Below, piece after piece: positions 50 to 40,142 of a stretch of 40,192 nt of DNA. Below the pieces are notes generated by a model. That model searched no databases, was not told the origin of the DNA, and saw nothing but the letters and a program-made list of their open reading frames with translations. Origin of the DNA: a virus. The translations under genes were made by a program, and so were the position numbers. The stretch's first letter is position 1. Each line of letters opens with the position of its first letter. Location of the stretch: UHGV virus genome UHGV-0071970; one strand, given 5' to 3'.

Positions 50-1042
50 CTAGTCAATGGACAGTTTATGGACACTATCAGCCAGCGGATTAAAGCTAAT
101 CGCATCCTGTAAAAAGTCCGGTGAAAAATGCGCATACGTCATCGTTTGTTGAATCGTGGCGTGCCCAAGGATTCGCTGTAACGTAACGATATTTCCGCCG
201 TTCATCATGAAATGCGTGGCGAACGTGTGACGCATAACGTGAGTCGCCTGACCTTTGGGTAAATCCGGTTTCACCTCCTGAAGGATATCCCGAAAACGGA
301 TGTAATCAGCCTGGTACAATAGCCCGGTTTTTCGGGTTTTTATCAACGAAAGCACCGTATCAGAAACAGGAACCGCGCGGGATTTTCCATTCTTTGTGTT
401 AAAGAACATTACGCGGTTACCAACGATATGCTCACCACGTAAGCCAGCTGCTTCCCCCCACCTTGCGCCAGTGGAAAGACACAGAACAGCAACGCGACGC
501 GCATCCCCCTCGAGTCGTTCAAGCAGCCGATCAATCTCATCATCTGAAAGAAAGGCCATTTCTGTATTCCTGACCTTGAGCTTACGTATTCCACGCACCG
601 GGTTTTCGTTATGGAAAACATCCGCATCAATCAGCGAGGTAAACATTGCAGACAAGGCACACAAATCACGATTAACACTGGAGGGCATTAATCCGGCCTG
701 TAATTTATCTGAACGATACCCGAGCATAAACTTTCGCGTCATCTCACTGGCGCGGGGGTCCCTCATCTCACGGTTTATTTTTTCCAGCCTGACCCTGTAA
801 GTATCCCCGTAAGGCTGATTCCGGCCATCAAGCACCCACCAGGCATCTATCAGTTCGGATAACCGACGCTGATCAGCTGGCTTGGCCTGCCACGGTTTAT
901 CGTGGAAATTCTGCAAAACATACCTTTCAAACTCCTGTGCCTTTGACTTCAGGGTAAAAATCTTACGGATCCGCTTTCCTTCCGTCCCTTGCGGTCTTAC
1001 ATCAACCTTATAACGCCCGTCTTTGAGTTGCTTAATCGACAT
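50..1042 (-). CDS. int: Tyrosine recombinase / phage integrase (P2 Int-like)
   Basis: Translation MSIKQLKDGRYKVDVRP...LSTGARWGEA...HVMRHTFATHFMMNGGNIVTLQRILGHATIQQTMTYAHF matches the P2 integrase pattern including the catalytic R..H-x-x-R..Y region. ATG at 1042 has SD GGAGGGG upstream; the track start at 1057 is a TTG. Confidence 0.9.
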   Translation of the reverse strand: MSIKQLKDGRYKVDVRPQGTEGKRIRKIFTLKSKAQEFERYVLQNFHDKPWQAKPADQRRLSELIDAWWVLDGRNQPYGDTYRVRLEKINREMRDPRASEMTRKFMLGYRSDKLQAGLMPSSVNRDLCALSAMFTSLIDADVFHNENPVRGIRKLKVRNTEMAFLSDDEIDRLLERLEGDARRVAVLCLSTGARWGEAAGLRGEHIVGNRVMFFNTKNGKSRAVPVSDTVLSLIKTRKTGLLYQADYIRFRDILQEVKPDLPKGQATHVMRHTFATHFMMNGGNIVTLQRILGHATIQQTMTYAHFSPDFLQDAISFNPLADSVHKLSID

Positions 1043-3874: not shown

Positions 3875-3980
3875 CCTGAAGCCGAAAGCAGGCGCGGAAT
3901 AACACCAGAAAACACACGAGCAATTAATTAAGGCATTCATGCCTTCGGGTTCCCTTTGTCTTTTTTTCAGGAGTCAACAA

Positions 3981-4830: not shown

Positions 4831-4840
4831 CCCCCCCCCC
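4831..4840. repeat. Homopolymeric C(10) tract
   Basis: Exactly ten consecutive C read directly in the sequence, in the spacer upstream of dam. Confidence 0.95.
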
Positions 4841-5027
4841 TGAACGTGGAAAGAAAAGCCCGCGCATCGCTGCATTTATTCCGCGACGGCGTGCGGAATT
4901 TTTCACGCATAAAACCCCACGACTACCTGGTAATAAGAATCGGTTTTCGCTGGCGATTGCTGAGCAAAAACAACGGGGCGTCATGGGATTTATTAACGCA
5001 CGAAACCTATAACAAAGAGGCCGCGTT

Positions 5028-5816
5028 ATGAGCAAAGAACTGTTATCCGGCACGCCGCTTAAATGGGTGGGCGGAAAAAGTCGCATCATGAACACACTGA
5101 AGGCGCATCTGCCAGAAGCAGACTGCCTGGTTGAGCCGTTTGTGGGTGGCGCATCGGTATTCATGAACACCAGTTACAAGCGTTACATCCTGGGTGATTC
5201 CAATGGTGCGCTGATTAATTTCTACCGGCAAGCCAGGGACAACACCGACAGCCTGATCGACGAGGCGAAAACCCTGTTCCTGAACCACAACAACAGGGGT
5301 GACTATCTCATCATTCGCGAAACCTTTAACGCAGAGAATCATGCCTTCCTGAACAGTAGAACGGGAATAAGCGACCGCCGTGAACTGCGACTGGCCGCCA
5401 TGTTTTTGTACCTGAACCGACACAGCTTTAACGGTTTGTTCCGCGTGAACGGAAAAGGCGATTTTAACGTGCCTTTCGGCTGCTACCGCAAGCCCTACTT
5501 CCCTGAGCGGGAAATCCGCGCATTTGCAGACAAGGCAAACAGCACCCGAACGCTGCTTATCCACGCAGATTTTAAGGATACGCTGAACTCTGCCAGTCAC
5601 CTGTTCGGCATGGGCAACACGCTTTGCGTGTACTGCGATCCCCCTTACCTGCGATTCAGTGGCCGGGACAATTTCACCGCCTACGGAAAACCATTCGATG
5701 AAGACGAGCACGTTCGTCTGAGGGCAGCGCTTGACCGCCTTTCACAGGAAACGGGCGGCATGACCAGCATCACCATCTCCAATTCCGACACACCGGAAAC
5801 CAGACGCATTTATTAG
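5028..5816 (+). CDS. dam: DNA N6-adenine methyltransferase (Dam family)
   Basis: KWVGGK, FVGGAS (AdoMet motif I) and catalytic DPPY motif in the translation. Confidence 0.85.
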   Translation: MSKELLSGTPLKWVGGKSRIMNTLKAHLPEADCLVEPFVGGASVFMNTSYKRYILGDSNGALINFYRQARDNTDSLIDEAKTLFLNHNNRGDYLIIRETFNAENHAFLNSRTGISDRRELRLAAMFLYLNRHSFNGLFRVNGKGDFNVPFGCYRKPYFPEREIRAFADKANSTRTLLIHADFKDTLNSASHLFGMGNTLCVYCDPPYLRFSGRDNFTAYGKPFDEDEHVRLRAALDRLSQETGGMTSITISNSDTPETRRIY

Positions 5817-5825
5817 GGTTACCGG

Positions 5826-6008
5826 ATGAACGCCATCCAGGCACCACGAAGCGTTGGCGCAAGAACCCGCGAACCCGCACCGGAGGTTATCGCCACCCTG
5901 AAACAGTGCGACGCATGCGGTCGCCATGGCGGTGGCTACTGCCCGGACTGCGGACCGGTAACGGGAGATGCAACTTACAGCGCGATGTTAATCACCGCCA
6001 GTACGTAA
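5826..6008 (+). CDS. Small Cys4 zinc-ribbon-like protein (60 aa)
   Basis: CDACG...CPDCG pair of CxxC motifs; weak ribosome-binding site. Confidence 0.35.
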   Translation: MNAIQAPRSVGARTREPAPEVIATLKQCDACGRHGGGYCPDCGPVTGDATYSAMLITAST

Positions 6009-7273: not shown

Positions 7274-7450
7274 CAGAAACACCCCGCGTATGCAGACAAT
7301 CACCAGTTGCCAGGTGATATTAATTCGCAACATTCTAACCACATCAGCACGCAACACAAAAACCGCTTGCCAGCGCTCGTCGTGTCGGGTTACATTTCCG
7401 CTGCACCTCATAAAACGGGTGCCGGGATTTCCACCCCGCTGACAAACGAA

Positions 7451-7477
7451 GCGCACAGCCGCGCCAGCGGTTTTTTT
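7451..7477 (+). terminator. Terminator-like hairpin followed by T7 (copy 1 of 2; second copy at 8280-8306)
   Basis: GCGCACAGCCGCGCCAGCGG followed by TTTTTTT; short GC stem, so weak. Confidence 0.35.
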
Positions 7478-7517
7478 GTGCGTACTGTATCGCCACGTCT
7501 TTTTCGCGTCAGAATTA

Positions 7518-7595
7518 TGGCGGGGCGTACAGGGCCGACTTCGGTCGGGCCGGTTTCTTCGTTTGCCGGTTGTGGAAACCCTGTACGTCTCGCCA
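7518..7595 (+). other. Long imperfect hairpin with internal UUCG-capped stem-loop, RNA-like (copy 1)
   Basis: TGGCGGGGCGTACAGGG pairs with CCCTGTACGTCTCGCCA (17 bp, including two G-T pairs that would only pair as G-U in plus-strand RNA); inner GGCCGAC-TTCG-GTCGGGCC stem-loop. Confidence 0.4.
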
Positions 7596-7656
7596 CCCTG
7601 AGTTTTCCACCTCTGGTTGGTGAGTTTTCAAAATTCACAAACGAAGAGGCCACACC

Positions 7657-7878
7657 ATGGCAAACCGCAAGCAACAGCGCGCCCGCGCTGAGCGTCTTCA
7701 CATCCGCAGCGAAATCAACCGCAGACTTTTCCGCGCAACACGCGTCGCACAAATCATGCATATCAACATGCTGCATGAGCGCACGCACGCGCTGTCAAAC
7801 CGTTACTGCGCTGCTGTCTTCAGCTATCTCGCCGAAGATCTGGCAGAACTGCAAAGCCTCATCAACCAGCACCGATAA
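7657..7878 (+). CDS. Small basic protein (73 aa), copy 1
   Basis: MANRKQQRARAERLHIRSEINRRLF...; SD AAGAGG 7 nt upstream. A longer antisense ORF (7408..7788) also exists, so coding strand is not certain. Confidence 0.45.
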   Translation: MANRKQQRARAERLHIRSEINRRLFRATRVAQIMHINMLHERTHALSNRYCAAVFSYLAEDLAELQSLINQHR

Positions 7879-7946
7879 ACCACATCCGGAAGCTATCCCA
7901 CACCTGCACGCGGGAGGCTTCCGCACGTCTGTTACCGGAGGTTCTC

Positions 7947-8117
7947 ATGAAGAGCGTTAAGGGACTTTCAGATATTCAGGACTTCTTTAACTGGATGTGG
8001 GCGGTGGATCCCCTGCTGGCTTCCCGCCTGAACAACTGGCACGACTATTACCGCCGCGCCTGTAAACAGGCTGCCCGCAGCGTCACCACATACGGGGCTT
8101 TCTCCTTCACCGTTGAC
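7947..8117 (+). pseudogene. Duplicated 5' fragment (about 57 codons) of the 138-aa gene at 8776..9192
   Basis: Same N-terminus MKSVKGLSDIQDFFNWMW...; the frame then runs out of the unit into repeat copy 2, giving the artefactual 280-aa track ORF 7947..8789. Confidence 0.5.
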
Positions 8118-8346
8118 TATGCAGACAATCACCAGTTGCCAGGTGATATTAATTCGCAACATTCTAACCACATCAGCACGCAACACAAAAACCGCTTGCC
8201 AGCGCTCGTCGTGTCGGGTTACATTTCCGCTGCACCTCATAAAACGGGTGCCGGGATTTCCACCCCGCTGACAAACGAAGCGCACAGCCGCGCCAGCGGT
8301 TTTTTTGTGCGTACTGTATCGCCACGTCTTTTTCGCGTCAGAATTA

Positions 8347-8424
8347 TGGCGGGGCGTACAGGGCCGACTTCGGTCGGGCCGGTTTCTTCGTTTGCCGGTT
8401 GTGGAAACCCTGTACGTCTCGCCA
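8347..8424 (+). other. Second copy of the RNA-like hairpin element
   Basis: Identical sequence at +829 bp. Confidence 0.4.
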
Positions 8425-8485
8425 CCCTGAGTTTTCCACCTCTGGTTGGTGAGTTTTCAAAATTCACAAACGAAGAGGCCACACC

Positions 8486-8707
8486 ATGGCAAACCGCAAG
8501 CAACAGCGCGCCCGCGCTGAGCGTCTTCACATCCGCAGCGAAATCAACCGCAGACTTTTCCGCGCAACACGCGTCGCACAAATCATGCATATCAACATGC
8601 TGCATGAGCGCACGCACGCGCTGTCAAACCGTTACTGCGCTGCTGTCTTCAGCTATCTCGCCGAAGATCTGGCAGAACTGCAAAGCCTCATCAACCAGCA
8701 CCGATAA
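8486..8707 (+). CDS. Small basic protein (73 aa), copy 2, identical
   Basis: Identical duplicate inside repeat copy 2. Confidence 0.45.
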   Translation: MANRKQQRARAERLHIRSEINRRLFRATRVAQIMHINMLHERTHALSNRYCAAVFSYLAEDLAELQSLINQHR

Positions 8708-8775
8708 ACCACATCCGGAAGCTATCCCACACCTGCACGCGGGAGGCTTCCGCACGTCTGTTACCGGAGGTTCTC

Positions 8776-9192
8776 ATGAAGAGCGTTAAGGGACTTTCAG
8801 ATATTCAGGACTTCTTTAACTGGATGTGGGCGGTGGATCCCCTGCTGGCTTCCCGCCTGAACAACTGGCACGACTATTACCGCCGCGCCTGTAAACAGGC
8901 TGCCCGCAGCGTCACCACATACGGGGATTTCTCCTTCACCGTGGACGGTCGTTACCGCGTGGACGTGAAAGGTGATGGTGATGGACTGGGTTTATTTCAC
9001 ATCAACGGCACCGACAGTACCGCCATCAGCTGGTCGTCATCAGAGATGGCGCTGATTCTGGAAATGACAACCCACAGCGTGGCCGTGAAAGGTATATACA
9101 CCGCAGAAGGTTTTATCGGCGAATACCAGCGCCTTCTCGTGCTGTACCGCGCGGCGTTTCAGGTGGCAACTGCCGGGGAGTGCGACGCATGA
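8776..9192 (+). CDS. Hypothetical protein (138 aa) immediately upstream of gpA
   Basis: Its stop overlaps the gpA ATG (ATGA at 9189-9192). Confidence 0.5.
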   Translation: MKSVKGLSDIQDFFNWMWAVDPLLASRLNNWHDYYRRACKQAARSVTTYGDFSFTVDGRYRVDVKGDGDGLGLFHINGTDSTAISWSSSEMALILEMTTHSVAVKGIYTAEGFIGEYQRLLVLYRAAFQVATAGECDA

Positions 9193-13712: not shown

Positions 13713-13932
13713 TACTTTTTCCCCATTCCGCCCGGTAACGGCGCTGGCTGAGGCCGGTTTGCACGGTGCACGAAAAACGAGGCGAGTAGTGGATGGGTAA
13801 AAATTAATAATAAGTATAAGCAATGTCGATAAACCAAGACACAACAAGTATTCAACACAATTAATCATGCACGTGCAAATAGCAATAACATTAACACATT
13901 ATTTATATAAAAAACAATCTGATATTATTTCG

Positions 13933-29042: not shown

Positions 29043-29407
29043 GTACCGGCTACACAGGCATGAATCACGCAGGCTACGGAACGCTGACAGACATCGACCA
29101 TCTGAACCAGTCAATCACGGATATTATCCTGACACCGGAAGGTTCGCGTGTTATGCGGCGCGAGTATGGCAGCAACCTGCCCGTTCTTCTTGACAGTCCG
29201 GCAAATGAAATAACCAGACTGCGCTGTATGAGTGCTGCCGTGATCGCCATTACACGATGGGAGCCACGCGTTGCCATAAACAGCGTGGACCTGACGTGGA
29301 GAAACAATGGCAGCGCAGTGTTATCCATGAGCTATCTGATTGTAAGCACCATGCAGAGCGCCAGTATTTCCGTTGATATACAGGGAGGGAAGGATGCCGA
29401 CAATTGA
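29039..29407 (+). CDS. W: Baseplate wedge protein W (gp25-like)
   Basis: 122 aa; ILTPEGSRVMRREYGSNL matches the GPW/gp25 family pattern. Confidence 0.8.
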   Translation: MSTGYTGMNHAGYGTLTDIDHLNQSITDIILTPEGSRVMRREYGSNLPVLLDSPANEITRLRCMSAAVIAITRWEPRVAINSVDLTWRNNGSAVLSMSYLIVSTMQSASISVDIQGGKDADN

Positions 29408-30290
29408 TTTATCCCAGCTGCCGCAACCGGCGATCATTGAATCGCTGGATTATGAAGTGATTCTGGCACAGACAAAGACATTCATGATTAGCGTCTTTCC
29501 GGAAGCCATGCGCGATGAAGTGGCGGCAGCCCTTGAACTGGAGTCAGAACCACTGAACATCATCGCTCAGGCTATGGCATGGCGGGAGCTGTTACTGCGG
29601 CAGCGAATCAATGATGGCGCAGCGGCCTGTATGCTGAGTCATTCATCAGGAAGCGATCTTGACAATCTGGGTGCAAACATGAATGTGCAGCGCCTGGTTA
29701 TCACCGAAGCAACGGAGACCACACCGGCGGTAATGGAAAGTGACGCCGCGTTCCGGATGCGCATACAGAGCGCCTTTGAAGGGATGAGTGTTGCCGGGCC
29801 TTCCGGCTCATATGAGTATTTTGCACGCAGCGCAAGCGGAAAAGTGGCAGATGCCAGAGCAACCAGCCCGGCACCGGCGGAAGTTGTGGTTGCGCTCCTT
29901 TCAGCCGACGGAGACGGAACGGCGAACGAAGCACTGATTAACGAAGTGAAAGCCGTACTGAACGACGAAACAGTTCGCCCCGTGGCGGACAGACTGACGG
30001 TGAAAAGCGCGGAAATCATCAGCTACAAGATTGATGCGACACTCTATTTTTACCCGGGGCCGGAATCAGAACCCATACTTCAGGCCGCACGGGCACAACT
30101 GGAGGCGTGGCTGGCAGAGCAGCGAAGAATTGGTCGTGACGTGGCCCGTTCAGCCATCATGGCGGCCCTGCATGTGCCCGGAGTTCAGCGGGTGGAGTTA
30201 ACACAACCAGCGAAGGATCTGGTGATCAGCGAAACACAGGCGGCGCGATGCTCCGCCACAGAGATTCGCGCCGGGGGGACCGATGAGTAA
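29394..30290 (+). CDS. J: Baseplate assembly protein J
   Basis: ATG at 29394 with SD GGGAGGGAAGG; about 298 aa as for P2 J. Confidence 0.8.
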   Translation: MPTIDLSQLPQPAIIESLDYEVILAQTKTFMISVFPEAMRDEVAAALELESEPLNIIAQAMAWRELLLRQRINDGAAACMLSHSSGSDLDNLGANMNVQRLVITEATETTPAVMESDAAFRMRIQSAFEGMSVAGPSGSYEYFARSASGKVADARATSPAPAEVVVALLSADGDGTANEALINEVKAVLNDETVRPVADRLTVKSAEIISYKIDATLYFYPGPESEPILQAARAQLEAWLAEQRRIGRDVARSAIMAALHVPGVQRVELTQPAKDLVISETQAARCSATEIRAGGTDE

Positions 30291-31002
30291 AACGGTGCTT
30301 CCGCCGTCTGCCAGTGTTTTTCTGAAAACCGTTGATCGCTCCGGGGAAAAAATCAGCCAGCTGCCGGTGAAACTTAACACCCTGTGGAATGCGGACGAAT
30401 GCCCTGAAGTACTGCTGCCATGGCTCGCATGGACGCTTTCAGTGGACAGATGGGATAAGGCATGGACGGAAGAGACTCGCCGGGACGTTATACGCGAGTC
30501 GTGGATGGTTCACCGTCATAAGGGGACCATCAGCGCCATGAGAAGAGCTATTGCCCCGTTCGGCGCGCTGCTGAGCATTACAGAGTGGTGGGAAAACGGC
30601 GACCCTCCAGGCAGTTTTCGTCTCAACATCGATGTTACACATGCAGCCCTGACAGAGGCGACCTATCAGGAAATGGAGCGCATGATTGCGCTGGCGAAGC
30701 CGGTAAGCCGTCACCTGAAAGCACTGAGGCTGACATACATTGCAAAAGGGGAAGTCTTTACCGGGGCAGTGAGTCATAGCGGAGACATCATACAGGTATA
30801 TCCGGACGCAACACTGCCGAACCCCTGCATTACCGGAGGAGAAATTTATTGTGCTGGCGCGATTTACGACAGTGACATAACCCGGGTTAAACCGGATACG
30901 GAGATACCGTCACCGTGCGCCGCACAAGCCGCTATCTGTATAGCCGGAACAACATACGACGGCACAACGACCATCGTAAAACCGGCACCGGAGGAACCAT
31001 GA
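30283..31002 (+). CDS. I: Baseplate/tail protein I (C-terminally extended relative to P2)
   Basis: Overlaps the J stop; P2 I position. Confidence 0.75.
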
Positions 31003-32597
31003 CACAGAAATACAAAACCATTATCACCACTGAGGGCCGCCGGAAGCTGGCCGAAGCCCTGAAGCCCGGTGGAAAAAAAGTCACCCTGGCAAAGATGCAG
31101 GTGGGCGACGGCAACGGCCAGGAAGTGGAGCCATCAGAAGGGCAAAAACAACTGGTGAAAAAAGTCTGGGAAGGGAATATCTCCAGCATCACACAGGATG
31201 CGGAGAATGAAAGCTTTGTCACCGCAGAGCTGGTTATTCCTGCTGACCAGGGCGGCTTCTGGGTGAGGGAGATTGGGTTATTCGATGATGAAGGTGCCCT
31301 GATTGCTGTTGGCAACGTAGCAGAAGGTTACAAACCGAAGCTGGAGGAAGGTTCAGGTCGGGAGCAGGTATTCAGGATGGTTATTCTCCTGAGTAATATT
31401 TCTGCGCTGAATATTAAACTGGATCAGTCAGTTGTCATGGTCACAAAAGCCGCTCTGGATCAGGCCATCAAAGAACATGAAAAAAGCGGCACCCACCAGT
31501 CTGCATCCACAAGCACAAAGGGATTTGTGCAACTGAGCAGTGCCACCGACAGTGACAGCGAAGAAACAGCCGCAACCTCTAAGGCCATCAAAACGCTGAA
31601 AGGAATGATTAATGAAAAATCTTCAGTCACTGACGCCACGACCAGCCAGAAAGGCATCGTCCGGCTGAGCAGCGAAACGGGCAGCGCCGCCGAAAACGCC
31701 GCTGCAACACCAAAGGCAGTCCAGCTCACCATGCAGAAAGCCACTGAAGCCGAAAAACTGGCTGAACAGGCTAAACAGAGTGCACAGGCAGCAAGTGAGA
31801 AAGCCTCAACACTGGAGCAACAAATCAATGCCACAAACCAGACCGTACAACAACTTCAACAGTCAACACAAAGCGGAGCACAGAAGGCGAAATATACCGC
31901 GCTGACCGTTGATCTCAATACACTGGGAAAACCAGAACACCACGGGGATTACTATCAGTCGGCCAATAAAGATGCAACCACCGCCATGCACTACCCCGTT
32001 GAACAGGCGGGATACCTGTCCGTGAAAATGGGAGCCTGGGGTTTCTGTCAACAGGAATACACTACATGGAACCCCATCAGGAAGTTTGTCAGGGCTGTCA
32101 ACGGTAATTTCACCGGAAATGGTCCATGGACGGACTGGAAGGAACTGGGGGCCGAGGGGCCGGCGGGTCAACAAGGACCTGCCGGGCCGACGGGGCCGCA
32201 GGGGAACACCGGGCCACGAGGTTCGCAGGGAGAAACAGGAAGACAGGGCCCGGCAGGTCCACAGGGCCCGACAGGTGAAACCGGACCACGGGGACCACAA
32301 GGGCCAACCGGAAGGCTGGTACCCGGGGAAATTTACAGCATCGGAACATACATTATTGCCGCACTAGGCCCGTATATAACCGACATCGGCAGAACCTATC
32401 AGCCAGGAGAAACTGTATCGGGTTCACGCCTTAAGCGATGCGCCCTAATCAAAGACGAAAACGGAAACTATATGAAAGCTAACACCGATGGCATTGACGG
32501 CAACCTATCCTCAGTTCCGGGGTCATGGATGGTGTGTAATGAAATTACGTCGACAAATGACAATGAAGGCATCGGGCTGTTCCAGCGCGCATACTGA
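30999..32597 (+). CDS. H: Tail fibre protein H with collagen-like segment
   Basis: N-terminus [20 protein letters not shown] and the next 150 aa parallel the P2 H N-terminus (...[27 protein letters not shown]...); Gly-X-Y repeats; divergent C-terminus. Confidence 0.8.
32154..32312 (+). repeat. Collagen-like Gly-X-Y repeat (about 17 triplets) inside the tail fibre gene
   Basis: [52 protein letters not shown]. Confidence 0.8.
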
Positions 32598-32616
32598 CAG
32601 ACAGGAGATGACATGA

Positions 32617-33216
32617 ATGTGGAAAAAAATAAGCAATCCGCAATGGGCAGATAAAGATCACACTGCTGTCAATTGCATGGTGAAGTTTGAGCACATTGAG
32701 CAGGCGGTTCCTTTCACTGCAACAGCCAGCGATACCGAAGCATACGGGCGGGATATTTATGCCGCTTGTCTGAGAGGAGAGGCCGGTGAAATTGCAGAAT
32801 ATGTACAGCCATCCATCAGCCCGGAAAAAGCCAGAGAACTCAAAACCGCCGGGATCAACGCCTGGCGGAACAGAATGGAATCAGCCAGTTATATTTTCAG
32901 CTTTAATGGCCGTAACTGGGATTATGGAAAGGAAACACAGGATCGCCTTGGCCCATCAGTTATCGCAGCAAAAGAAGGCAATCTCCCGGAGAAGTTTTTC
33001 TGGACAGACGCAGACAACAACGACGTCCCCATGACTGCGGAAGAACTGATTGCGCTGAGTGAAGCCGCGCAACAGGCAATGTTCGCGAAGGGAATGGAAA
33101 TTCATGTGCGCCAGCGCAACATGAAAAAAGAGATTGCAGAACTTCAGGATGCGGAGGCCATTCAGCGTTACGTTGTGGGCTGGCCCACAACGGAAGAACC
33201 CGCCACCGAAAGATGA
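32617..33216 (+). CDS. Putative tail fibre assembly chaperone (G position)
   Basis: Follows H with SD AGGAGA; no resemblance to P2 gpG that I can see, so the function is positional. Confidence 0.45.
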   Translation: MWKKISNPQWADKDHTAVNCMVKFEHIEQAVPFTATASDTEAYGRDIYAACLRGEAGEIAEYVQPSISPEKARELKTAGINAWRNRMESASYIFSFNGRNWDYGKETQDRLGPSVIAAKEGNLPEKFFWTDADNNDVPMTAEELIALSEAAQQAMFAKGMEIHVRQRNMKKEIAELQDAEAIQRYVVGWPTTEEPATER

Positions 33217-33224
33217 ACAGCAAA

Positions 33225-33246
33225 AACGCCCTGACACCAGGGCGTT
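33225..33246. terminator. Bidirectional terminator between convergent G-position gene and U
   Basis: AACGCCCTG-ACAC-CAGGGCGTT flanked by an A-run upstream and a T-rich run downstream. Confidence 0.55.
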
Positions 33247-33251
33247 ATTAT

Positions 33252-33725
33252 TTAAACCGGAATGGACAGATTATTCAGGGCACCTTTGACGTTATTCGCA
33301 AGATCACCAAGCGACGAGGACTGAAGACGTTCACGCAGATCTTCATCCACACGCTCAAAAGTGACAGTAAACTCAATCTTTCTTGCCCGACCATAGCGAT
33401 CAAGTTCAGAGCGGGTGGTGTTAAGCCCGGTAATGACATACATCCCGTAAATCTGCCCTACCCCATCAATCAGCGGCCATGGTCGCCCGACGTAAGCCTG
33501 GCTGGTCAGTGCGGTCAGGGAGACTTCACCGCCCGTAATTTCCGGGTAGAGCAAACCCGAAAGCGTGATGGTATCGTCACCCGCGCCGATATACTGCCAG
33601 CTGGCTGAGCGGTTGATTCGCTCGTTCTTTACATGCCTCCAGTTACGGGACTGTTGTATTTGTTGGTGTGGCAGTGTGCTTAACTGAAAAACAAACATGC
33701 CGTAAATCATCATCATAACCATCAC
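33252..33725 (-). CDS. U: Tail protein U
   Basis: MMVMMMIYGMFVFQL...RNWRH...GDDTITLSG.L.PEITGG...L...GRPWPLIDG.G...GMYVI closely parallels P2 gpU. The track start at 33725 is a GTG; first ATG at 33722. Confidence 0.85.
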   Translation of the reverse strand: MMVMMMIYGMFVFQLSTLPHQQIQQSRNWRHVKNERINRSASWQYIGAGDDTITLSGLLYPEITGGEVSLTALTSQAYVGRPWPLIDGVGQIYGMYVITGLNTTRSELDRYGRARKIEFTVTFERVDEDLRERLQSSSLGDLANNVKGALNNLSIPV

Positions 33726-33727
33726 TC

Positions 33728-34117
33728 CTAATCACGATCGCGGAAACTGTTCATACCGCCGGATTGTCTGCGAATTTCTTCCCGTACCGCCTCCCCCACC
33801 ATTCTGGCAAGGTCGCGAGGGTTCTGCGTAACCACGTTGTGAAGGTGAACATGAATATCACCACCGTACACAGGCGGCGGTTCAGGAGAGCGCGAAGGCC
33901 CCCGGGGTGTCGGGGACACCGGATCCCACCGCTTAACCTCCACAGGACGGGAAGAATCCGGGGAAACCGCCGGAGACACAGGCGAAAACGCTGGCATAAG
34001 CGGAAGCCCGGGTGCAACAGTCGGTTCATTCCACTGCCCGCGAACAGCCAGCGCACGGGGGAGATTTTTAAACACGATATCGCCAGGACCGATACGCTTG
34101 CGGGCTTCCTGAAGCAT
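33728..34117 (-). CDS. 129-aa ORF between T and U; possibly the displaced C-terminus of the tape measure protein
   Basis: Its frame is open upstream to 34249 (no stop), overlapping the last 24 codons of T in a -1 frame. Proline-rich linker then ...GGDIHVHLHNVVTQNPRDLARMVGEAVREEIRRQ. Confidence 0.4.
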   Translation of the reverse strand: MLQEARKRIGPGDIVFKNLPRALAVRGQWNEPTVAPGLPLMPAFSPVSPAVSPDSSRPVEVKRWDPVSPTPRGPSRSPEPPPVYGGDIHVHLHNVVTQNPRDLARMVGEAVREEIRRQSGGMNSFRDRD

Positions 34118-34176
34118 ACCCGACGTATTACCCTCGATACCTTTGAGCCTGCGAAGAACGCCACTGGTGCCGTCGT

Positions 34177-36558
34177 TTATGACAGAAGGCTTGCCACCAT
34201 TATTACCTTTATCATTGCCATCAACTGGCTTAGCGGCGAGATAATGGCATTAACATCCCCCTGAAGCAGGGAGAGCTTGCCCTGAAGAAGCGAAGCCCGC
34301 TGTGCATCCTCCAGTTTCCGGCGCGCCCTTTCAGCTTCATCAGGCAGCACGCCAAGCTTTTCCAGTACCCAGGCAAGTCCATCCATCAGCGCCTTCAGCG
34401 GCGTAAGCGCAAGCGATATCGCCCCACTAAGTACACGACCGAAGCTTTCTCCCGCAGACGTACACCGTTCAAGAGATTCGTTGCTGGCCTGAACAGGCGT
34501 GAGTAACCGGGTAAACCAGTCAAACACCGTGGACACCGCACCCGACACCAGATCAAACAACGGCGCAAACTGAGCAATACTTTCACGAACAGGCGCAAGG
34601 CCAGCCCACAGCGACCGGAATGTGCCGAGCATGAACGCCTTAACCTGTTCCCAGTGACGCCATATGAGCAGCGCCCCACCGGCAAGAGCAGCAATCACGA
34701 GACCAACAGGACTGAGAAGACCGGAAAGCACCCCGCCCAGCACAGAAACCGCACCGGAGACCATCCCCCACAGTGCCGGAAGGCCGGACAGGCGAAGAGC
34801 AAGACCACCAACACCGTTTGTAAGCGAGGATAGCCCGCCACCAAGAAGCGCAGAGCCAAGCTGAAGTTTTGCAAAAATCCCCGTCAGTAACCCACCTCCG
34901 ACAGACAACGCACCAATGGCCGTTGTGGCCGCAAGCACGCCACCCACGGTAAGGGTCAGCGTGCGTACAAGCTGCGGGTTTTCCTGAACCCACGACCTGA
35001 AGCGTTCACCCACAGAAGCAACAGCCTGTACAAGCTCGCGGATATCATCAGTAACCAGCGACACAACATCACTGCGAATACCGGAGAAAATGCCGGACAG
35101 ACGATCGGTGTCGCCGCCGAGGTTGTCACGCAGAACATCCCCCATTCGCCGGGCGGTTCCCTGAACCAGCCCCATACGGTCAGATACCGTTGCAAGCGAC
35201 CGGAGAAAATCCGGGATCTGGTCAACAGCCAGATCTTCAATGGGTGTGCCGAACAGCGCTATCGCCGCATTGGCCCGTTCTGCAGGATCCTGAATCTGTA
35301 ACAGACCTGACGCGGTGCGACGCATCGCTTCACGCGCGACCGCGCCGCCACTGGCGATCGCTGACGACATTCTTTCAGCGTTAAGGCCAATCAGCTCATA
35401 GGCTTCAACGCTGGATTTGGACATATCCGAGCCGCGAATACTGAATTCTTTGACAGCATCGCCGGTTTTATCCAGGGCGAATTTCCCCTGCTGCGCCATA
35501 CTGACAAGCAGCGTCATGGTTTCAGAGCCGGATAGCCCCATATTGCGGAAATGCGTGGAATACTCATGCAGAATTTCAGGAAGTTCGCCGCGCATTTCGG
35601 AAGACATTTTCTGCATCCCTGCCGCCATCAGGTCCACGGCCTCACCTGCATTTGCGGCAAGCCCGTTTTTCAGCATAATGCCGGCAGCCTGAACCTGTTC
35701 AGCCACATTACCGCCGGTGACCTGAGCAAGATCGATTGCCTGCCGTGCCACCCTTTCCAGTTCTTCAGTACCTACGGTACCCAGTGCGCCAAGCGTGCTT
35801 TGCGCCGCAGCTGCTGCTTCCGAAATCATCGCGATATCCGTGGCCGCACCTGACGCACGGATGCTCTGAATCATACGGCTGTAGCGCTGGCCGTCTTCTG
35901 CGCTGCCGCCACTCTGTGCCGCAATGAGCGCCCCCTGCCGTTGCTCTTCAACAACAGGTGCAACCGCGCGACCGGCAGCATACAGACCGGCACTGCCAGC
36001 CGCCATGGCAACAGCACCGCGCTGACTGAGCTTACCGGCAATATCCTGAACACGGTCATAGCGTTGCTGCGCCTGCGTGACGCGTGCAAGCTGGCCCCGC
36101 TGGCGTTCGAGCTGATCGTTGTATTCCTGCGTCCGCCTGATTGCCCTCTCGACCGTACGGTTACTTCCGTCCGCCCGTATACCGTGAGATTCCAGTTCGC
36201 GACTGGCTTCGCTAAGTCGGGATTTGTGGAGGGAATAAACCGTATTAAGGCGATCAATCTTCACAGTCAGCGAGCGGATAGCTTCCTGCTGTTTTTCCGT
36301 TAGTGTTGTGCCTGTACGCTGGGCCTCCTGGAGGCGCTGAAGTCGCGCACGCGCCTCGTTCAGACTGTTTTCAGTCGAGGTCACCTGCTGGCGGGCACGG
36401 GAAAACGCATCACTGCTTCGCTGGAGTGACTTAAGAGCGTTCTGCGTGGAGGAAAGAGATTCAGAAAGCGCGCCGGTCATTTCCCGGGCGCGCCTGACGG
36501 GTTGAGTGAGACGGTCGACCGCAGTAAGGGCTACACGTATCTGGAGATTATTACTCAT
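34177..36558 (-). CDS. T: Tail tape measure protein T (as annotated, 793 aa; may be interrupted near its 3' end)
   Basis: Long alpha-helical Ala/Gln/Arg-rich protein after E/E'; ATG at 36558 overlaps the E' stop (ATGAGTAA). Confidence 0.8.
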   Translation of the reverse strand: MSNNLQIRVALTAVDRLTQPVRRAREMTGALSESLSSTQNALKSLQRSSDAFSRARQQVTSTENSLNEARARLQRLQEAQRTGTTLTEKQQEAIRSLTVKIDRLNTVYSLHKSRLSEASRELESHGIRADGSNRTVERAIRRTQEYNDQLERQRGQLARVTQAQQRYDRVQDIAGKLSQRGAVAMAAGSAGLYAAGRAVAPVVEEQRQGALIAAQSGGSAEDGQRYSRMIQSIRASGAATDIAMISEAAAAAQSTLGALGTVGTEELERVARQAIDLAQVTGGNVAEQVQAAGIMLKNGLAANAGEAVDLMAAGMQKMSSEMRGELPEILHEYSTHFRNMGLSGSETMTLLVSMAQQGKFALDKTGDAVKEFSIRGSDMSKSSVEAYELIGLNAERMSSAIASGGAVAREAMRRTASGLLQIQDPAERANAAIALFGTPIEDLAVDQIPDFLRSLATVSDRMGLVQGTARRMGDVLRDNLGGDTDRLSGIFSGIRSDVVSLVTDDIRELVQAVASVGERFRSWVQENPQLVRTLTLTVGGVLAATTAIGALSVGGGLLTGIFAKLQLGSALLGGGLSSLTNGVGGLALRLSGLPALWGMVSGAVSVLGGVLSGLLSPVGLVIAALAGGALLIWRHWEQVKAFMLGTFRSLWAGLAPVRESIAQFAPLFDLVSGAVSTVFDWFTRLLTPVQASNESLERCTSAGESFGRVLSGAISLALTPLKALMDGLAWVLEKLGVLPDEAERARRKLEDAQRASLLQGKLSLLQGDVNAIISPLSQLMAMIKVIMVASLLS

Positions 36559-37086
36559 CGTTATGATTCCCGGTTCTGACGGCCGCCCGTTCTCGCCAGG
36601 CAACCAGTTCACCGGGAGTCATCACAAAGATTTCAGAGGGCGACCAGTGAAATACAACGGCTATATCAGCGACAATATCTTCAACGTAATCAAAAGCAAG
36701 AAGCGTTACGCGCCGCCCGCCTCCTGCGCCTTCTTCGCTGACGAGGGAAGCAAAAAACCGACTGCCACCTCGTACAGTTTAAAGAAGTCTTCCGGGCACA
36801 TTGACATAAGTGCCGCGCGGCTGAGGTGAGGTTCAGTTACGCGTTCCAGAAAAATGGCGGCAGCATCAACATCGGTGTTGAACAGGTCCGTCATGCGGAT
36901 CCCTCGAAGCGAGCCCACCTGACGCGCAAGCGCCCCAATCTTCACGCTGGAAACCGTCTTATTACCGCAGACAACAGGAACCCTGAGATTAACCGTGTCA
37001 TTTGCGATCGCCTCTGCGTTTTCCGTGTCTCCATTCGTCACAGCATCTGTGTCATTCGTCACGATATTTTCTTCAGTCTGATCCAT
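36551..37086 (-). CDS. E+E' fusion chaperone produced by programmed -1 frameshift
   Basis: The -1 frame is open from the slip site to a TAA at 36551-36553 (about 68 extra codons) and ends overlapping the T start, as in P2 E/E'. Confidence 0.6.
36706..37086 (-). CDS. E: Tail assembly chaperone E
   Basis: 126 aa; SD GGGAGA; contains the slippery heptamer near its 3' end. Confidence 0.8.
   Translation of the reverse strand: MDQTEENIVTNDTDAVTNGDTENAEAIANDTVNLRVPVVCGNKTVSSVKIGALARQVGSLRGIRMTDLFNTDVDAAAIFLERVTEPHLSRAALMSMCPEDFFKLYEVAVGFLLPSSAKKAQEAGGA
36751..36757 (-). promoter_or_regulatory. Slippery heptamer T-TTT-TTG for the E/E' -1 frameshift
   Basis: Minus-strand GGTTTTTTG with zero-frame codons TTT TTG. 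Confidence 0.65.
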
Positions 37087-37137
37087 TATTTTTCTCCCGG
37101 GGCAACAGGACGCCGCCCCTGTTATCAGATTTAACTA

Positions 37138-37650
37138 TCAGCCAAGCCCCAGCATGGAGCGGGTGCGGTCAGGAAGAACATCCTTACCATCAATGCGCCA
37201 GATGAAGTTCAGCACGTCGATTTCAATAACATCGCTGTTATCAACGCTGAGCTTGTACCAGGTGCATTTCATCGCATAGGTATGTTCGGTATCTTCACCC
37301 TGTTTGGCCTCGCCCTTGTCGATTTCGACAATGCGACCACGGGCTTCAATATCGACGTACTCAATCCCTTCTTCGGAATAGTATTCACCCGAGAAGCGAA
37401 CACGCACGGCATCAATACCGGCGGCGTATTTGGCAAAGATGTGACGATCGACGCCACCAACCGCAAAGGAGAGATCCAGTGCACCATCATCAAGACCGAG
37501 ATCCACCGACGCAGAGCCTGGCATCCCCGCCCCGCGATACGACTCTGTTTTACGGGTCAGTTTTGGCGGGGTAAAAGACGTCACCTTTCCCAGCTTGTTG
37601 TCACCGTCCACAAAGACGGTAAACACACGAAGTTTTTTTGGTACGGCCAT
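37138..37650 (-). CDS. FII: Tail tube protein FII
   Basis: 170 aa, P2 FII-like; start overlaps the FI stop (TAATG). Confidence 0.85.
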   Translation of the reverse strand: MAVPKKLRVFTVFVDGDNKLGKVTSFTPPKLTRKTESYRGAGMPGSASVDLGLDDGALDLSFAVGGVDRHIFAKYAAGIDAVRVRFSGEYYSEEGIEYVDIEARGRIVEIDKGEAKQGEDTEHTYAMKCTWYKLSVDNSDVIEIDVLNFIWRIDGKDVLPDRTRSMLGLG

Positions 37651-38843
37651 TAGCTACCTCCAAGAGATGCAAAAGCAGAGCTGAAGAACTCGTCGGTAAA
37701 CGTCTGATAGAGTTCCATACACTCCATCGGCGGAACAGGCGTGTATTTGTAGCGAATACGCACAATGCCCTGACGAAGACTGGTTGTGCCGTTGTCGATG
37801 ATATCGAACCAGCACTCAGCCCCGATGAGTTTTCCGGCTGTCACCAGTGCATCCAGCTTTGCCTTGATAGCGCTCACGGCATCCTTAGCATTGGCAGGCG
37901 TAAGCGGTGAATCCACTATCTGAAGTTGCGCCTCCGCAATGGTGTCAGCCAGTTGCTGCGCCGTACGTGTGTACACCTCAAAGATGTACTCCGCAGTTTC
38001 CGGCGTACGGTTACCCCAGAAACGGAAGGAGCCGTCGCCCTGGTGAATAAGAGTGGTCACCTCGCTATTGTTCAGCGTGTTGGCATCGCTGTTTTCATCC
38101 TGAAGTGACCAGGAAACAGACGCTGACACCCCAAGAACATTTTTCACAGGCATGTTAGAAAGGGAGCGATGCCAGCCCTGTTCATGGTCGAGTCGGGCAC
38201 GAAGACCGCACGCATACGCCGCAGCCGGGAAGGTTTCGTTTTTACCGGACACCGGGTTGAACGCAATGAAATCAGGCCACAGAAGCATGATTTCGCGACC
38301 GGAAATCTTTTTACGAAACGCAATAGCATCGGACGGTTTTGTGCAGCCAGGGCAGCCGGAATACGCAAATGCGCGCATTTTTCCGGCAACAGTCACCAGT
38401 GCAGCCGTGACAGCATCCGATTCAAGGCCCGGAGCGGCAAGAATGCGGGGTCGGTAACCAATACCTTCCATCTGTTCGGCAACCAGAAGCGCCTGCATAC
38501 CGCTGTAGCTTCCGTCTTCTTCCGTGGTACCAATGACCAGTTGATCCTGTGTTTTATTCTCAGCCCCCTCTTTTGCCGCCTCCACGCGAACGACAATCAC
38601 CCGTGTACTGACCTGGTCAGATATCGCTTTAAGGGCCTTATAAAGCGTGCCCGCTTTCCCGGCCTTCCCCAGAACAGAAGATACACGGGTAATCAGCACT
38701 GGCTTGTTAAGGGGGAACTGCCCGGTATCCGCATCATCTGCAACGGCAACAATACCAATGACGCTGGAATCAACGTCATTAATGGCCGTCACAAGGTCGG
38801 TATTCTCCGTGACGCGCACACCGTGAAATCGTTTTTCAGCCAT
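37650..38843 (-). CDS. FI: Contractile tail sheath protein FI
   Basis: Close match to the P2 FI pattern (FPLNKPVLIT, KLRAF.YSG, LRA..D.EQGWH..LSN, GFRFWGNRT, NYTRTAQ, RI.Y.YTPVPP). ATG at 38843 with SD GGTGA; the track alternative is 38855. Confidence 0.9.
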   Translation of the reverse strand: MAEKRFHGVRVTENTDLVTAINDVDSSVIGIVAVADDADTGQFPLNKPVLITRVSSVLGKAGKAGTLYKALKAISDQVSTRVIVVRVEAAKEGAENKTQDQLVIGTTEEDGSYSGMQALLVAEQMEGIGYRPRILAAPGLESDAVTAALVTVAGKMRAFAYSGCPGCTKPSDAIAFRKKISGREIMLLWPDFIAFNPVSGKNETFPAAAYACGLRARLDHEQGWHRSLSNMPVKNVLGVSASVSWSLQDENSDANTLNNSEVTTLIHQGDGSFRFWGNRTPETAEYIFEVYTRTAQQLADTIAEAQLQIVDSPLTPANAKDAVSAIKAKLDALVTAGKLIGAECWFDIIDNGTTSLRQGIVRIRYKYTPVPPMECMELYQTFTDEFFSSAFASLGGS

Positions 38844-38895
38844 ACGATTCACCATCAGTTGTGTTTATGCTCGCCTGAATAATCCACCATTGGCG

Positions 38896-38996: not shown

Positions 38997-40142
38997 ATGA
39001 GCATCACTGAATCAGTAACACATCACATCAACAGCGCACTGGATGCAGCGGAAGATACCGTTAGGGTGCCAGACTTCACTATCACACTGGAAGGGAAAGA
39101 TGCCAGCCTGAAGAACATCACGCAGCGCATCATGAGCCTGACCATGACAGACAACAGGGGTTTTGAGGCTGACAGGGTGACACTGGAAATCGACGACGCC
39201 GAGGGCGGGGTGGTACTTCCGGAACGCGGAACACGATTATCGCTGGCGATGGGATGGAAAGGTGAAAGCCTCACTCGCAAGGGAACGTTTGTGGTGGACG
39301 AAGTGAGCCACGAAGGTCCGCCGGATAAGCTGACCATATCCGCGAACAGTGCGGATTTTCGCGAAGAGTTTAACGTGAAACGCGAAGTCTCCTGGCATGA
39401 CGTGACCGTTGAGCGTGTGGTATCTGCCATCGCGCACCGTTACGGACTGAAAGCACAAATCAGCGAAATGCTGATGAATATCGAAATCGACCATGCAGAC
39501 CAGACAGAGGAAAGCGACATCTCGTTCCTCACGCGCATGGCTGACATGCTGGGTGCAATAACCACCGTAAAAAACGGATGCCTGCTGTTCATTCTGCCGG
39601 GTGGCGGTGTGACAGCCAGCGGGCGCGCCCTCCCCTCATTCGCCCTGACCCGCTCGGATGGCGACAGTCATCGCTTTCGCATTGCTGACAGAAAAGCCTA
39701 TACCGGAGTGAAAGCTTACTGGCTGGATTTAAAGTTCGGCCAGAAGAAGGCCGTGAACGTGAAAAAGCGAAACGCGAAAACCACACAGAAGCCGGAGAAA
39801 AGCAGTTCACGGGAGGGTGGATACATGGAAGGCGCAGAAGGCAATGTGTATGTGCTGAGAAAAACCTACCCGAACGAAGAAGCCGCGCGTCGCGCAGCTG
39901 CCGCACGCTGGCAGCAACTTCAGCGGGGTGCAGCAGAATTCAGCATCACGCTGGCGCGCGGACGCGCCGACCTGTATCCGGAGATGCACGGCACGGTATC
40001 CGGGTTCAAGAGCGACATTGACAATCAGGACTGGGTTATTTCGCGCATTGAGCACGTCATCGACGACAGCGGCTTCACCACCAGACTGGAGCTGGAAGCA
40101 AAAATCGCAGACTGGATAGCAGAGCGCGCCACGACTGGCTAG
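38997..40142 (+). CDS. D: Tail protein D (late control D family)
   Basis: 381 aa; SD GGGAGGG; motifs TLTDNRG, EADRVTLEIDDA, ASWHD, IDHADQTEESD match the gpD family as I recall it. Confidence 0.85.
   Translation: MSITESVTHHINSALDAAEDTVRVPDFTITLEGKDASLKNITQRIMSLTMTDNRGFEADRVTLEIDDAEGGVVLPERGTRLSLAMGWKGESLTRKGTFVVDEVSHEGPPDKLTISANSADFREEFNVKREVSWHDVTVERVVSAIAHRYGLKAQISEMLMNIEIDHADQTEESDISFLTRMADMLGAITTVKNGCLLFILPGGGVTASGRALPSFALTRSDGDSHRFRIADRKAYTGVKAYWLDLKFGQKKAVNVKKRNAKTTQKPEKSSSREGGYMEGAEGNVYVLRKTYPNEEAARRAAAARWQQLQRGAAEFSITLARGRADLYPEMHGTVSGFKSDIDNQDWVISRIEHVIDDSGFTTRLELEAKIADWIAERATTG

Follow-up and report, generated by a model that had tools for sequence, protein, structure and literature searches.

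The tail module of this prophage raises a simple question: why is its tape measure gene, T, divided between two reading frames? A reading made from the sequence alone had preferred a single-base indel to programmed frameshifting or a homopolymer error, and had left two explanations side by side at its close, a real inactivating lesion and a genuinely separate gene. We examined the locus in the 40,192-nt stretch of DNA that contains it (the window) and in its relatives. The window very probably carries a genuine CCC to CC deletion that inactivates T of a P88-like prophage, which is probably tail-defective as a result. The split T is not a novel arrangement: it is a frameshift pseudogene of the ordinary kind, and the tape measure protein (TMP) concerned is already known.

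The tail module and the two parts of T

The window holds almost the whole of a P2-like prophage, beginning with the integrase (53-1042, minus strand) and reaching gpD (38997-40142). The host element is a P2/P88-like (Peduoviridae) E. coli prophage; in the relatives and in metagenome contigs it is located in E. coli between serS and dmsA. The features that matter for T are the following.

38855-37650, minus strand: sheath
37650-37138, minus strand: tube
36706-37086, minus strand: gpE tail assembly chaperone, intact
36751-36757, minus strand: T_TTT_TTG heptamer in phase with E (sequence and phase taken directly from the window)
34177-36558, minus strand: 5' part of T, 793-aa product, from ATG 36558 (ORF list)
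34235-34236, minus strand: site of the 1-nt deletion, CC against CCC in relatives (pairwise alignments and a regular-expression count of C runs)
34180-34249, minus strand: overlap of the two frames, 70 nt (codon listing of both frames)
34207-34210, minus strand: A_AAG in phase with the T frame, ATA AAG (codon listing)
33728-34234, minus strand: 3' part of T, native residues 776-943 plus stop (tblastn, phrog_17114, alignments)
33728-34117, minus strand: 129-aa ATG ORF (ORF list; called a gene by gene finders)
33252-33716, minus strand: gpU (tube initiator), intact, 154 aa (PF06995, E=5.6e-40)

The gpD gene lies on the plus strand and points away from the module, and the tail-fibre genes run convergently towards U. 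This layout recurs in phage P88 (Xuanwuvirus, Peduoviridae) and is therefore characteristic of the family, not a rearrangement. The gpU protein is 100% identical to WP_001537176.1. Upstream of T, the heptamer at 36757-36751 is, as predicted from its sequence and phase, the module's real programmed -1 site, which yields E+E'. The E' frame ends with a TAA at 36556-36554 and overlaps the T start; annotations or gene calls of relatives include the E' tail (PF06528, Phage_P2_GpE).

T as now encoded begins at ATG 36558. A GTG at 36612 is an alternative start that would give 811 aa; in an exact look-up the 793-aa ATG-start product was on record and the 811-aa GTG-start product was not. The frame runs into a TAA stop (34179-34177) after ...VNAIISPLSQLMAMIKVIMVASLLS, which is the atypical hydrophobic tail, ending at 34177, described in the sequence-only reading. 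The product consists of native residues 1-775 followed by 18 out-of-frame residues, LSQLMAMIKVIMVASLLS. It contains the core domain of a P2/P88-type gpT: PF10145 (PhageMin_Tail) matches residues 254-455 with E=5.9e-18, and the tape measure profile phrog_28 (PHROG 28) matches the 5' part of T with E=2.5e-106. The position of the gene is also that of gpT, because the order sheath-tube-E-(E')-T-U is found in the window, in loci L001 and L002 and in P88. A gpT of this type is one ORF of about 935-952 aa that includes the C-terminal motifs and ends before U; in the window such a continuous ORF appears only once one base is restored. The window T is a frameshifted allele (pseudogene) of the gpT family, not an intact member.

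The remainder of the protein lies in the -1 frame, which is open from 34249, following a TAA at 34252-34250, to the stop at 33730-33728. The encoded sequence, AKPVDGNDKGNNGGKPSVINDGTSG...REEIRRQSGGMNSFRDRD, opens with AKPVDGNDKGNNGGKPSV and ends with ...SFRDRD. This translation agrees with the earlier description of a -1 frame that is open from 34249 through the 129-aa ORF to 33728 and stops at the U start; U begins at ATG 33716, the start given in the annotation of relatives, or alternatively at GTG 33725, that is 2-11 nt from the end of the -1 frame. The 129-aa ORF is an internal fragment of T, the portion of the -1 frame past its first ATG. When the intact 943-aa T was compared with the window by tblastn, residues 1-775 mapped to 36558-34234 and residues 776-943 to 34234-33731 with 100% identity. 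The phrog_17114 profile is split between the same pieces: the first takes up positions 25-208 and the second the abutting positions 209-388.

The stranded 3' part holds the motifs KRIGPGDIVFKNLPRALAVRG and GG(D/E)IHVHLH...NPR(D/E)LAR.VGEAVR.E, which are the best conserved blocks in this TMP family. The alignment of the C-terminal piece contains 22 invariant columns across 20 homologues. The break falls outside these blocks, in a poorly conserved linker rich in Gly, Asn, Pro and Lys.

A missing base at a short C run

A megablast search with positions 33200-36700 against 5,426 complete E. coli genomes identified 14 that match at 98.9% identity or above. In all 14 genomes 3,502 bases align to the 3,501 of the window; each has the extra base and a single 943-aa CDS labeled as phage tail tape measure protein. 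With the site in its middle, a 301-nt query likewise corresponds to 302 nt in every one of these genomes. A base-by-base comparison over 3.5 kb with one of the sequences, NZ_CP145707.1, revealed ten substitutions and one indel, the missing C at 34236/7; this sole indel bears out the preference of the sequence-only reading for a single-base event. The sequence is CTCGCCCGCT in the relatives and CTCGCCGCT in the window, with one C of a C3 run gone; on the plus strand this appears as GG in the window and GGG in the relatives. The comparison points to a short C3 run as the ancestral state, which would have changed from CCC to CC at codon 775/776 of the 943-aa T.

The same picture emerged from other sources. 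Four metagenome contigs were recovered by a pattern scan for either state of the site, and all four have CCC. A more distant relative, L002 (88% identity), encodes a single 952-aa T, and in phage P88 T is a single ORF of 935 aa that ends 7 nt before U. Together with the 14 complete genomes and six loci of the intact haplotype, these are all cases of an uninterrupted T. Furthermore, nearly all of the 40 members that we read from the 90%-identity T cluster (456 members) have 943 aa. A pattern scan for the site in genome_contigs, a collection with one genome per species, found nothing; its E. coli representative is evidently without this prophage.

Re-insertion of the C in silico produced a 943-aa protein, close to the length of about 940 aa that had been estimated for a joined product. 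It is an exact full-length match to P0078 (ELC97546.1, UPI0002A2E9E2), an intact protein present on at least 39 contigs (85 index blocks). Inside T, the deletion and a single synonymous SNP (36463) are all that separates the window from loci L017-L021, which are most but not all of the loci fetched for the intact allele.

A megablast of the T region against the phage collection gave no match. In its DNA the phage is thus only a distant relative of sequenced phages, and for this reason we turned to tblastn at the protein level. In all 43 phage records that were matched, the piece encoded by the -1 frame is the C-terminus of an annotated TMP; the matches include P88, Klebsiella phage ST16-OXA48phi5.4 and others. 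The alignment that the sequence-only reading had proposed as a check thus places the 129-aa product within TMP C-termini. A conserved gene of its own between T and U is absent from all the relatives examined, and the T ORF of the window stops at a point at which no full-length homologue terminates, so that neither of the findings named beforehand as fatal to a split gene was made. Of the two explanations left at its close, the inactivating lesion is supported and the genuinely separate gene is rejected by the relatives.

Artefact, intended frameshift or leaky lesion

The deletion would be trivial if the true sequence were CCC and T were intact. The site is indeed a short homopolymer, and the window differs from its relatives in further runs, C10/C8 at 4831-4840, T7/T6 at 3967, A6/A5 at 13914 and A7/A6 at 32623-32629; one metagenome scaffold, L006, even has a gap of 10 N exactly at the site. 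However, the exact truncated 793-aa product occurs with the identical deletion on 11 Illumina metagenome contigs, which come from at least three samples and three assemblies. Contigs L008 and L004 are from run ERR525838 assembled by MEGAHIT and L011 is from the same run assembled by Logan, so two different assemblers gave the deletion; L009 and L005 are from ERR525839, and L010 is from ERZ27239488. Over positions 33200-37200 these contigs are 100% identical to the window, deletion included, and the indel is therefore present in independent data sets of the same haplotype. A run of three bases is moreover too short for typical homopolymer miscalls, and the A7 indel, like another at 32611, is also common to the deletion-carrying contigs. 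Since the deletion recurs in several metagenome assemblies made independently, a sequencing error is unlikely, and the deletion appears to be genuine; that T is in truth intact seems very improbable to us.

The deletion is unique to one haplotype. The CC allele is absent from the matching complete genomes and from the NCBI isolate proteins of the T cluster, as judged from the 40 of 456 members that were read, and it is rare. The samples that carry it are possibly epidemiologically linked (e.g., consecutive runs, one cohort), so that the allele may represent a single strain. Two other contigs were considered as carriers and rejected: L006 because its scaffold gap coincides with the site, and L007 because it starts downstream of it.

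With a genuine deletion, the two frames could still both be intended, either as a programmed -1 frameshift or as two genes, T and a separate protein of 129-173 aa. Tail modules do use -1 frameshifting, here in E/E', and on 13 contigs the 129-aa ORF has been called as a gene. A -1 shift anywhere within 34180-34249 would recover the native C-terminus of T. The codon-by-codon listing of both frames, however, contains no X_XXY_YYZ heptamer in this overlap and no homopolymer, as had been stated before; to this it adds the ancestral C3 run and an A_AAG at 34210-34207, the only minimal -1 shift-prone motif within the overlap. The two-frame architecture is not conserved either: the 943-aa length prevails in the T cluster, and P88 and the Klebsiella phage homologues have the piece as the C-terminus of T. 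The related phages that were matched have no homologue with its own start and ribosome binding site. In the window the first start codon of the -1 frame is at 34117, and this ATG is without a well-spaced Shine-Dalgarno sequence, the nearest similar motif being GAGGG, 13 nt upstream. Other stand-alone 'C-terminal' proteins turned out to be partial sequences at contig edges or fragments of other broken T genes. We regard the two-product explanation as refuted by the comparative data and its truth as barely conceivable. The R-pyocin 'ripcord' was considered as a precedent for a small gene beside T and rejected, as the comparative data exclude a separate gene; the ripcord has no detectable similarity to the TMP C-terminus (P2 preprint).

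Another explanation accepts the deletion and asks whether it is leaky. Only a few copies of the TMP are needed per tail. Non-programmed -1 slippage in the overlap might yield a few per cent of a near-native T and leave the prophage weakly viable. The most plausible slip site would be A_AAG 34210-34207, which is in phase with T; a -1 slip there rejoins the native frame at ...KGNNGGKPSV. The product would have LSQLMAMIK in place of AKPVDGNDK at residues 776-785, a replacement that sits in the non-conserved linker; an example of a mixed-frame junction peptide is ...IISPLSQLMAMIK-GNNGGKPSVINDGTSGVLR. A_AAG has been documented as a minimal site of -1 shifting in E. coli (PMC5009743), and single-bp deletions in E. 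coli test genes are suppressed at an aggregate frequency of 1-10% (PMC10861913). On the other hand, an isolated A_AAG has low efficiency, the overlap lacks a heptamer, no stimulator resembling a Shine-Dalgarno sequence was noticed upstream, and every relative has one ORF instead of this architecture. Such leakiness is unlikely in our view. That the CC allele is alive, in the sense that slippage gives enough TMP for a low yield of infective phage, is likewise doubtful. If it were true, the locus would be a natural 'leaky' frameshift in a structural gene, which throttles the productivity of the prophage and is tolerated or even favoured in the host lineage.

Expected consequence and known systems

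We return to the inactivating deletion as the preferred explanation. Beyond the deletion, ribosomes on T would translate 18 codons in the wrong frame before they reach the stop at 34177. The resulting 793-aa product would keep the PhageMin_Tail core and the hydrophobic, glycine-rich segment, and it would lack the last 168 residues with the two most conserved motifs and the C-terminal helix. According to the P2 cryo-EM preprint, the TMP of P2 rests with its C-terminal helices on the spike gpV in the hub, below the tube initiator gpU. By analogy, the lost C-terminus would be the region on the spike/hub inside the baseplate. A TMP devoid of it would presumably not be anchored where tube polymerisation begins, and the nucleation or anchoring of tube assembly would be expected to fail. 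The prophage should then form no or very few normal tails and be defective for infective particles. T function has probably been lost and the prophage is probably tail-defective; -1 suppression and the position of the break in a poorly conserved linker mean that the phenotype could be leaky and not null.

The structural role suggested for the C-terminal piece comes from the P2 analogy because the AlphaFold2 model of the C-terminal 168 aa, computed from the 20-sequence alignment, has low confidence (pLDDT 56, pTM 0.18); it contains only two helices, at 24-47 and, terminally, at 139-158. A Pfam search with the C-terminal piece found no family, and a PDB sequence search with the intact T found no match. 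In a tblastn analysis of the late region every late gene other than T was intact. The intactness of the remaining late genes suggests that the lesion is recent, most likely very recent.

For annotation this means that the 793/811-aa and 129-aa ORFs are one frameshifted tape measure pseudogene, which should be joined and flagged; the error to avoid is to list them as a short TMP with a hypothetical protein beside it. In spite of its complete appearance, the prophage is best classed as probably tail-defective. It provides an example of young prophage decay, with one lesion and an intact twin allele that is still common. Only if translation turned out to leak through the lesion would it offer phage biology anything new.

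The closest known relative is the intact TMP of E. coli prophages. ELC97546.1 has the amino acid sequence of the window T after the C is restored, and WP_032182346.1 in NZ_CP145707.1 is also among the closest intact forms. As in the window, the intact gene is located between E/E' and U in a prophage at the serS-dmsA locus; the window differs in having one base fewer, which puts the last 168 residues into the -1 frame. Phage P88 has the same layout, with D divergent from sheath-tube-E-E'-T-U and with tail fibres on the strand opposite to the tail module. Its TMP (gp45, YP_009113088.1, 935 aa) is about 40% identical to the -1-frame piece over the C-terminal ~150 aa, both motifs included. Unlike the window, P88 is a viable phage with an uninterrupted T, and its DNA is only distantly related (no megablast match).

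The role and neighbourhood of T in phage P2 (E, E', T, U, D) match the window, and the E gene of the window has the P2-type T_TTT_TTG site. Compared with the gene order of P2, the FI-U block of the window has the opposite orientation. The C-terminus of P2 gpT has no similarity to the window piece that was detectable by tblastn at E<=1e-3. In contrast to E/E+E' of P2, the split in the window T is neither at a slippery site nor conserved.

Finally, the locus resembles the pseudogenes of decaying (cryptic) prophages, in which a single-base indel disrupts a long structural gene and the remainder is intact. The same T cluster contains independently broken members: L006 carries a nonsense mutation, TCG to TAG, and STM15377, STM15378 and P0001 are fragments with different frameshifts. 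Compared with such pseudogenes the window T is distinctive in nothing; it is very young, and its intact twin allele is circulating.

Other apparently disrupted alleles of the tape measure gene

Alleles of the tape measure gene T other than that of the window also appear to be broken. L006 (ENA ERZ28662456 scaffold_2494) is a metagenome scaffold that carries another haplotype of the same prophage. Its T contains a TCG to TAG nonsense codon (window equivalent 36272), which would be an independent inactivation of the gene. The same scaffold has a 10-N scaffold gap precisely at the site of the T indel (window equivalent 34235-34238); this gap might stem from a mixture of CC and CCC in the population, or it could be a coincidence. 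The database proteins P0001, P0075 and P0077 (STM15377, STM15378; E. coli 4.25-Mb contig) come from another E. coli genome, in which the same T is encoded in several pieces, with different frameshifts; P0001, for instance, retains ISPAKPVDG and its frame shifts past LPLMPAF. The fragmented T of the E. coli 4.25-Mb contig has two possible readings: T has decayed independently here too, or the long-read assembly is error-prone.

Indels outside T and the tandem duplication

Two paired single-base indels distinguish the window from all relatives with an intact T, and both are located at the start of the DUF4376 tail-fibre assembly gene. At 32611 one A is missing from the spacer 3' of the Shine-Dalgarno sequence, and at 32623-32629 an A6 run within codons 4-6 has become A7. 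The native ATG at 32613 is now out of frame; the ORF begins at the ATG at 32617, and the N-terminus of the product reads MWKKISN... in the window versus the native MNVEKISN... This pair of indels is common to the metagenome contigs with the T deletion.

A homopolymer near the prophage methylase gene also differs in length. The two features are:

4831-4840, + strand: poly-C tract (C10), inside the ORF starting at ATG 4802
5028-6005: prophage DNA adenine methylase (dam)

The tract lies within codons 10-13 of an ORF of 75 aa that carries the annotation 'ParE family toxin-like protein'; the stop of this ORF overlaps the start of dam. A length of C7-C9, chiefly C8, fits 27 related E. coli prophages. 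With C8 the ParE-like ORF stays in frame; C10 leads to a TGA at 4841-4843. The tract could be phase-variable, or it could be a second frameshift of the window's lineage. Taken together, the indels in the DUF4376 gene, in T and in the poly-C tract hint at an indel-prone, possibly mutator, history.

The early region contains a larger rearrangement:

7289-8117 and 8118-8946: the two copies of an 829-bp tandem duplication

The reported 300-nt copies of this duplication are 100% identical. The repeat doubles a 73-aa ORF together with the N-termini of the two flanking ORFs. NZ_CP145707.1, a complete E. coli genome with a closely related prophage, has a single copy of the segment, whereas the window has two in tandem.

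Tail gene organization in comparison with related phages

The tail fibre gene (30999-32597) shows in-frame length variation in a collagen-like Gly-X-Y repeat at 32190-32290; compared with NZ_CP145707.1, the window lacks 18 nt and carries an additional 9 nt there. Upstream of T lies the following site:

36751-36757, - strand: T_TTT_TTG, a programmed -1 frameshift site of the canonical P2 E/E' type; its phase is that of gpE

The end of the E' frame (TAA at 36556-36554) overlaps the ATG of T. The sheath-tube-E-T-U block (33252-38855) is on the strand opposite to D (38997-40142) and to the baseplate and fibre genes V-W-J-I-H-G (29394-33216), and is hence inverted with respect to the classical P2 gene order. 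The inverted block is a lineage trait, because Escherichia phage P88 and all of the E. coli relatives share the orientation found in the window.
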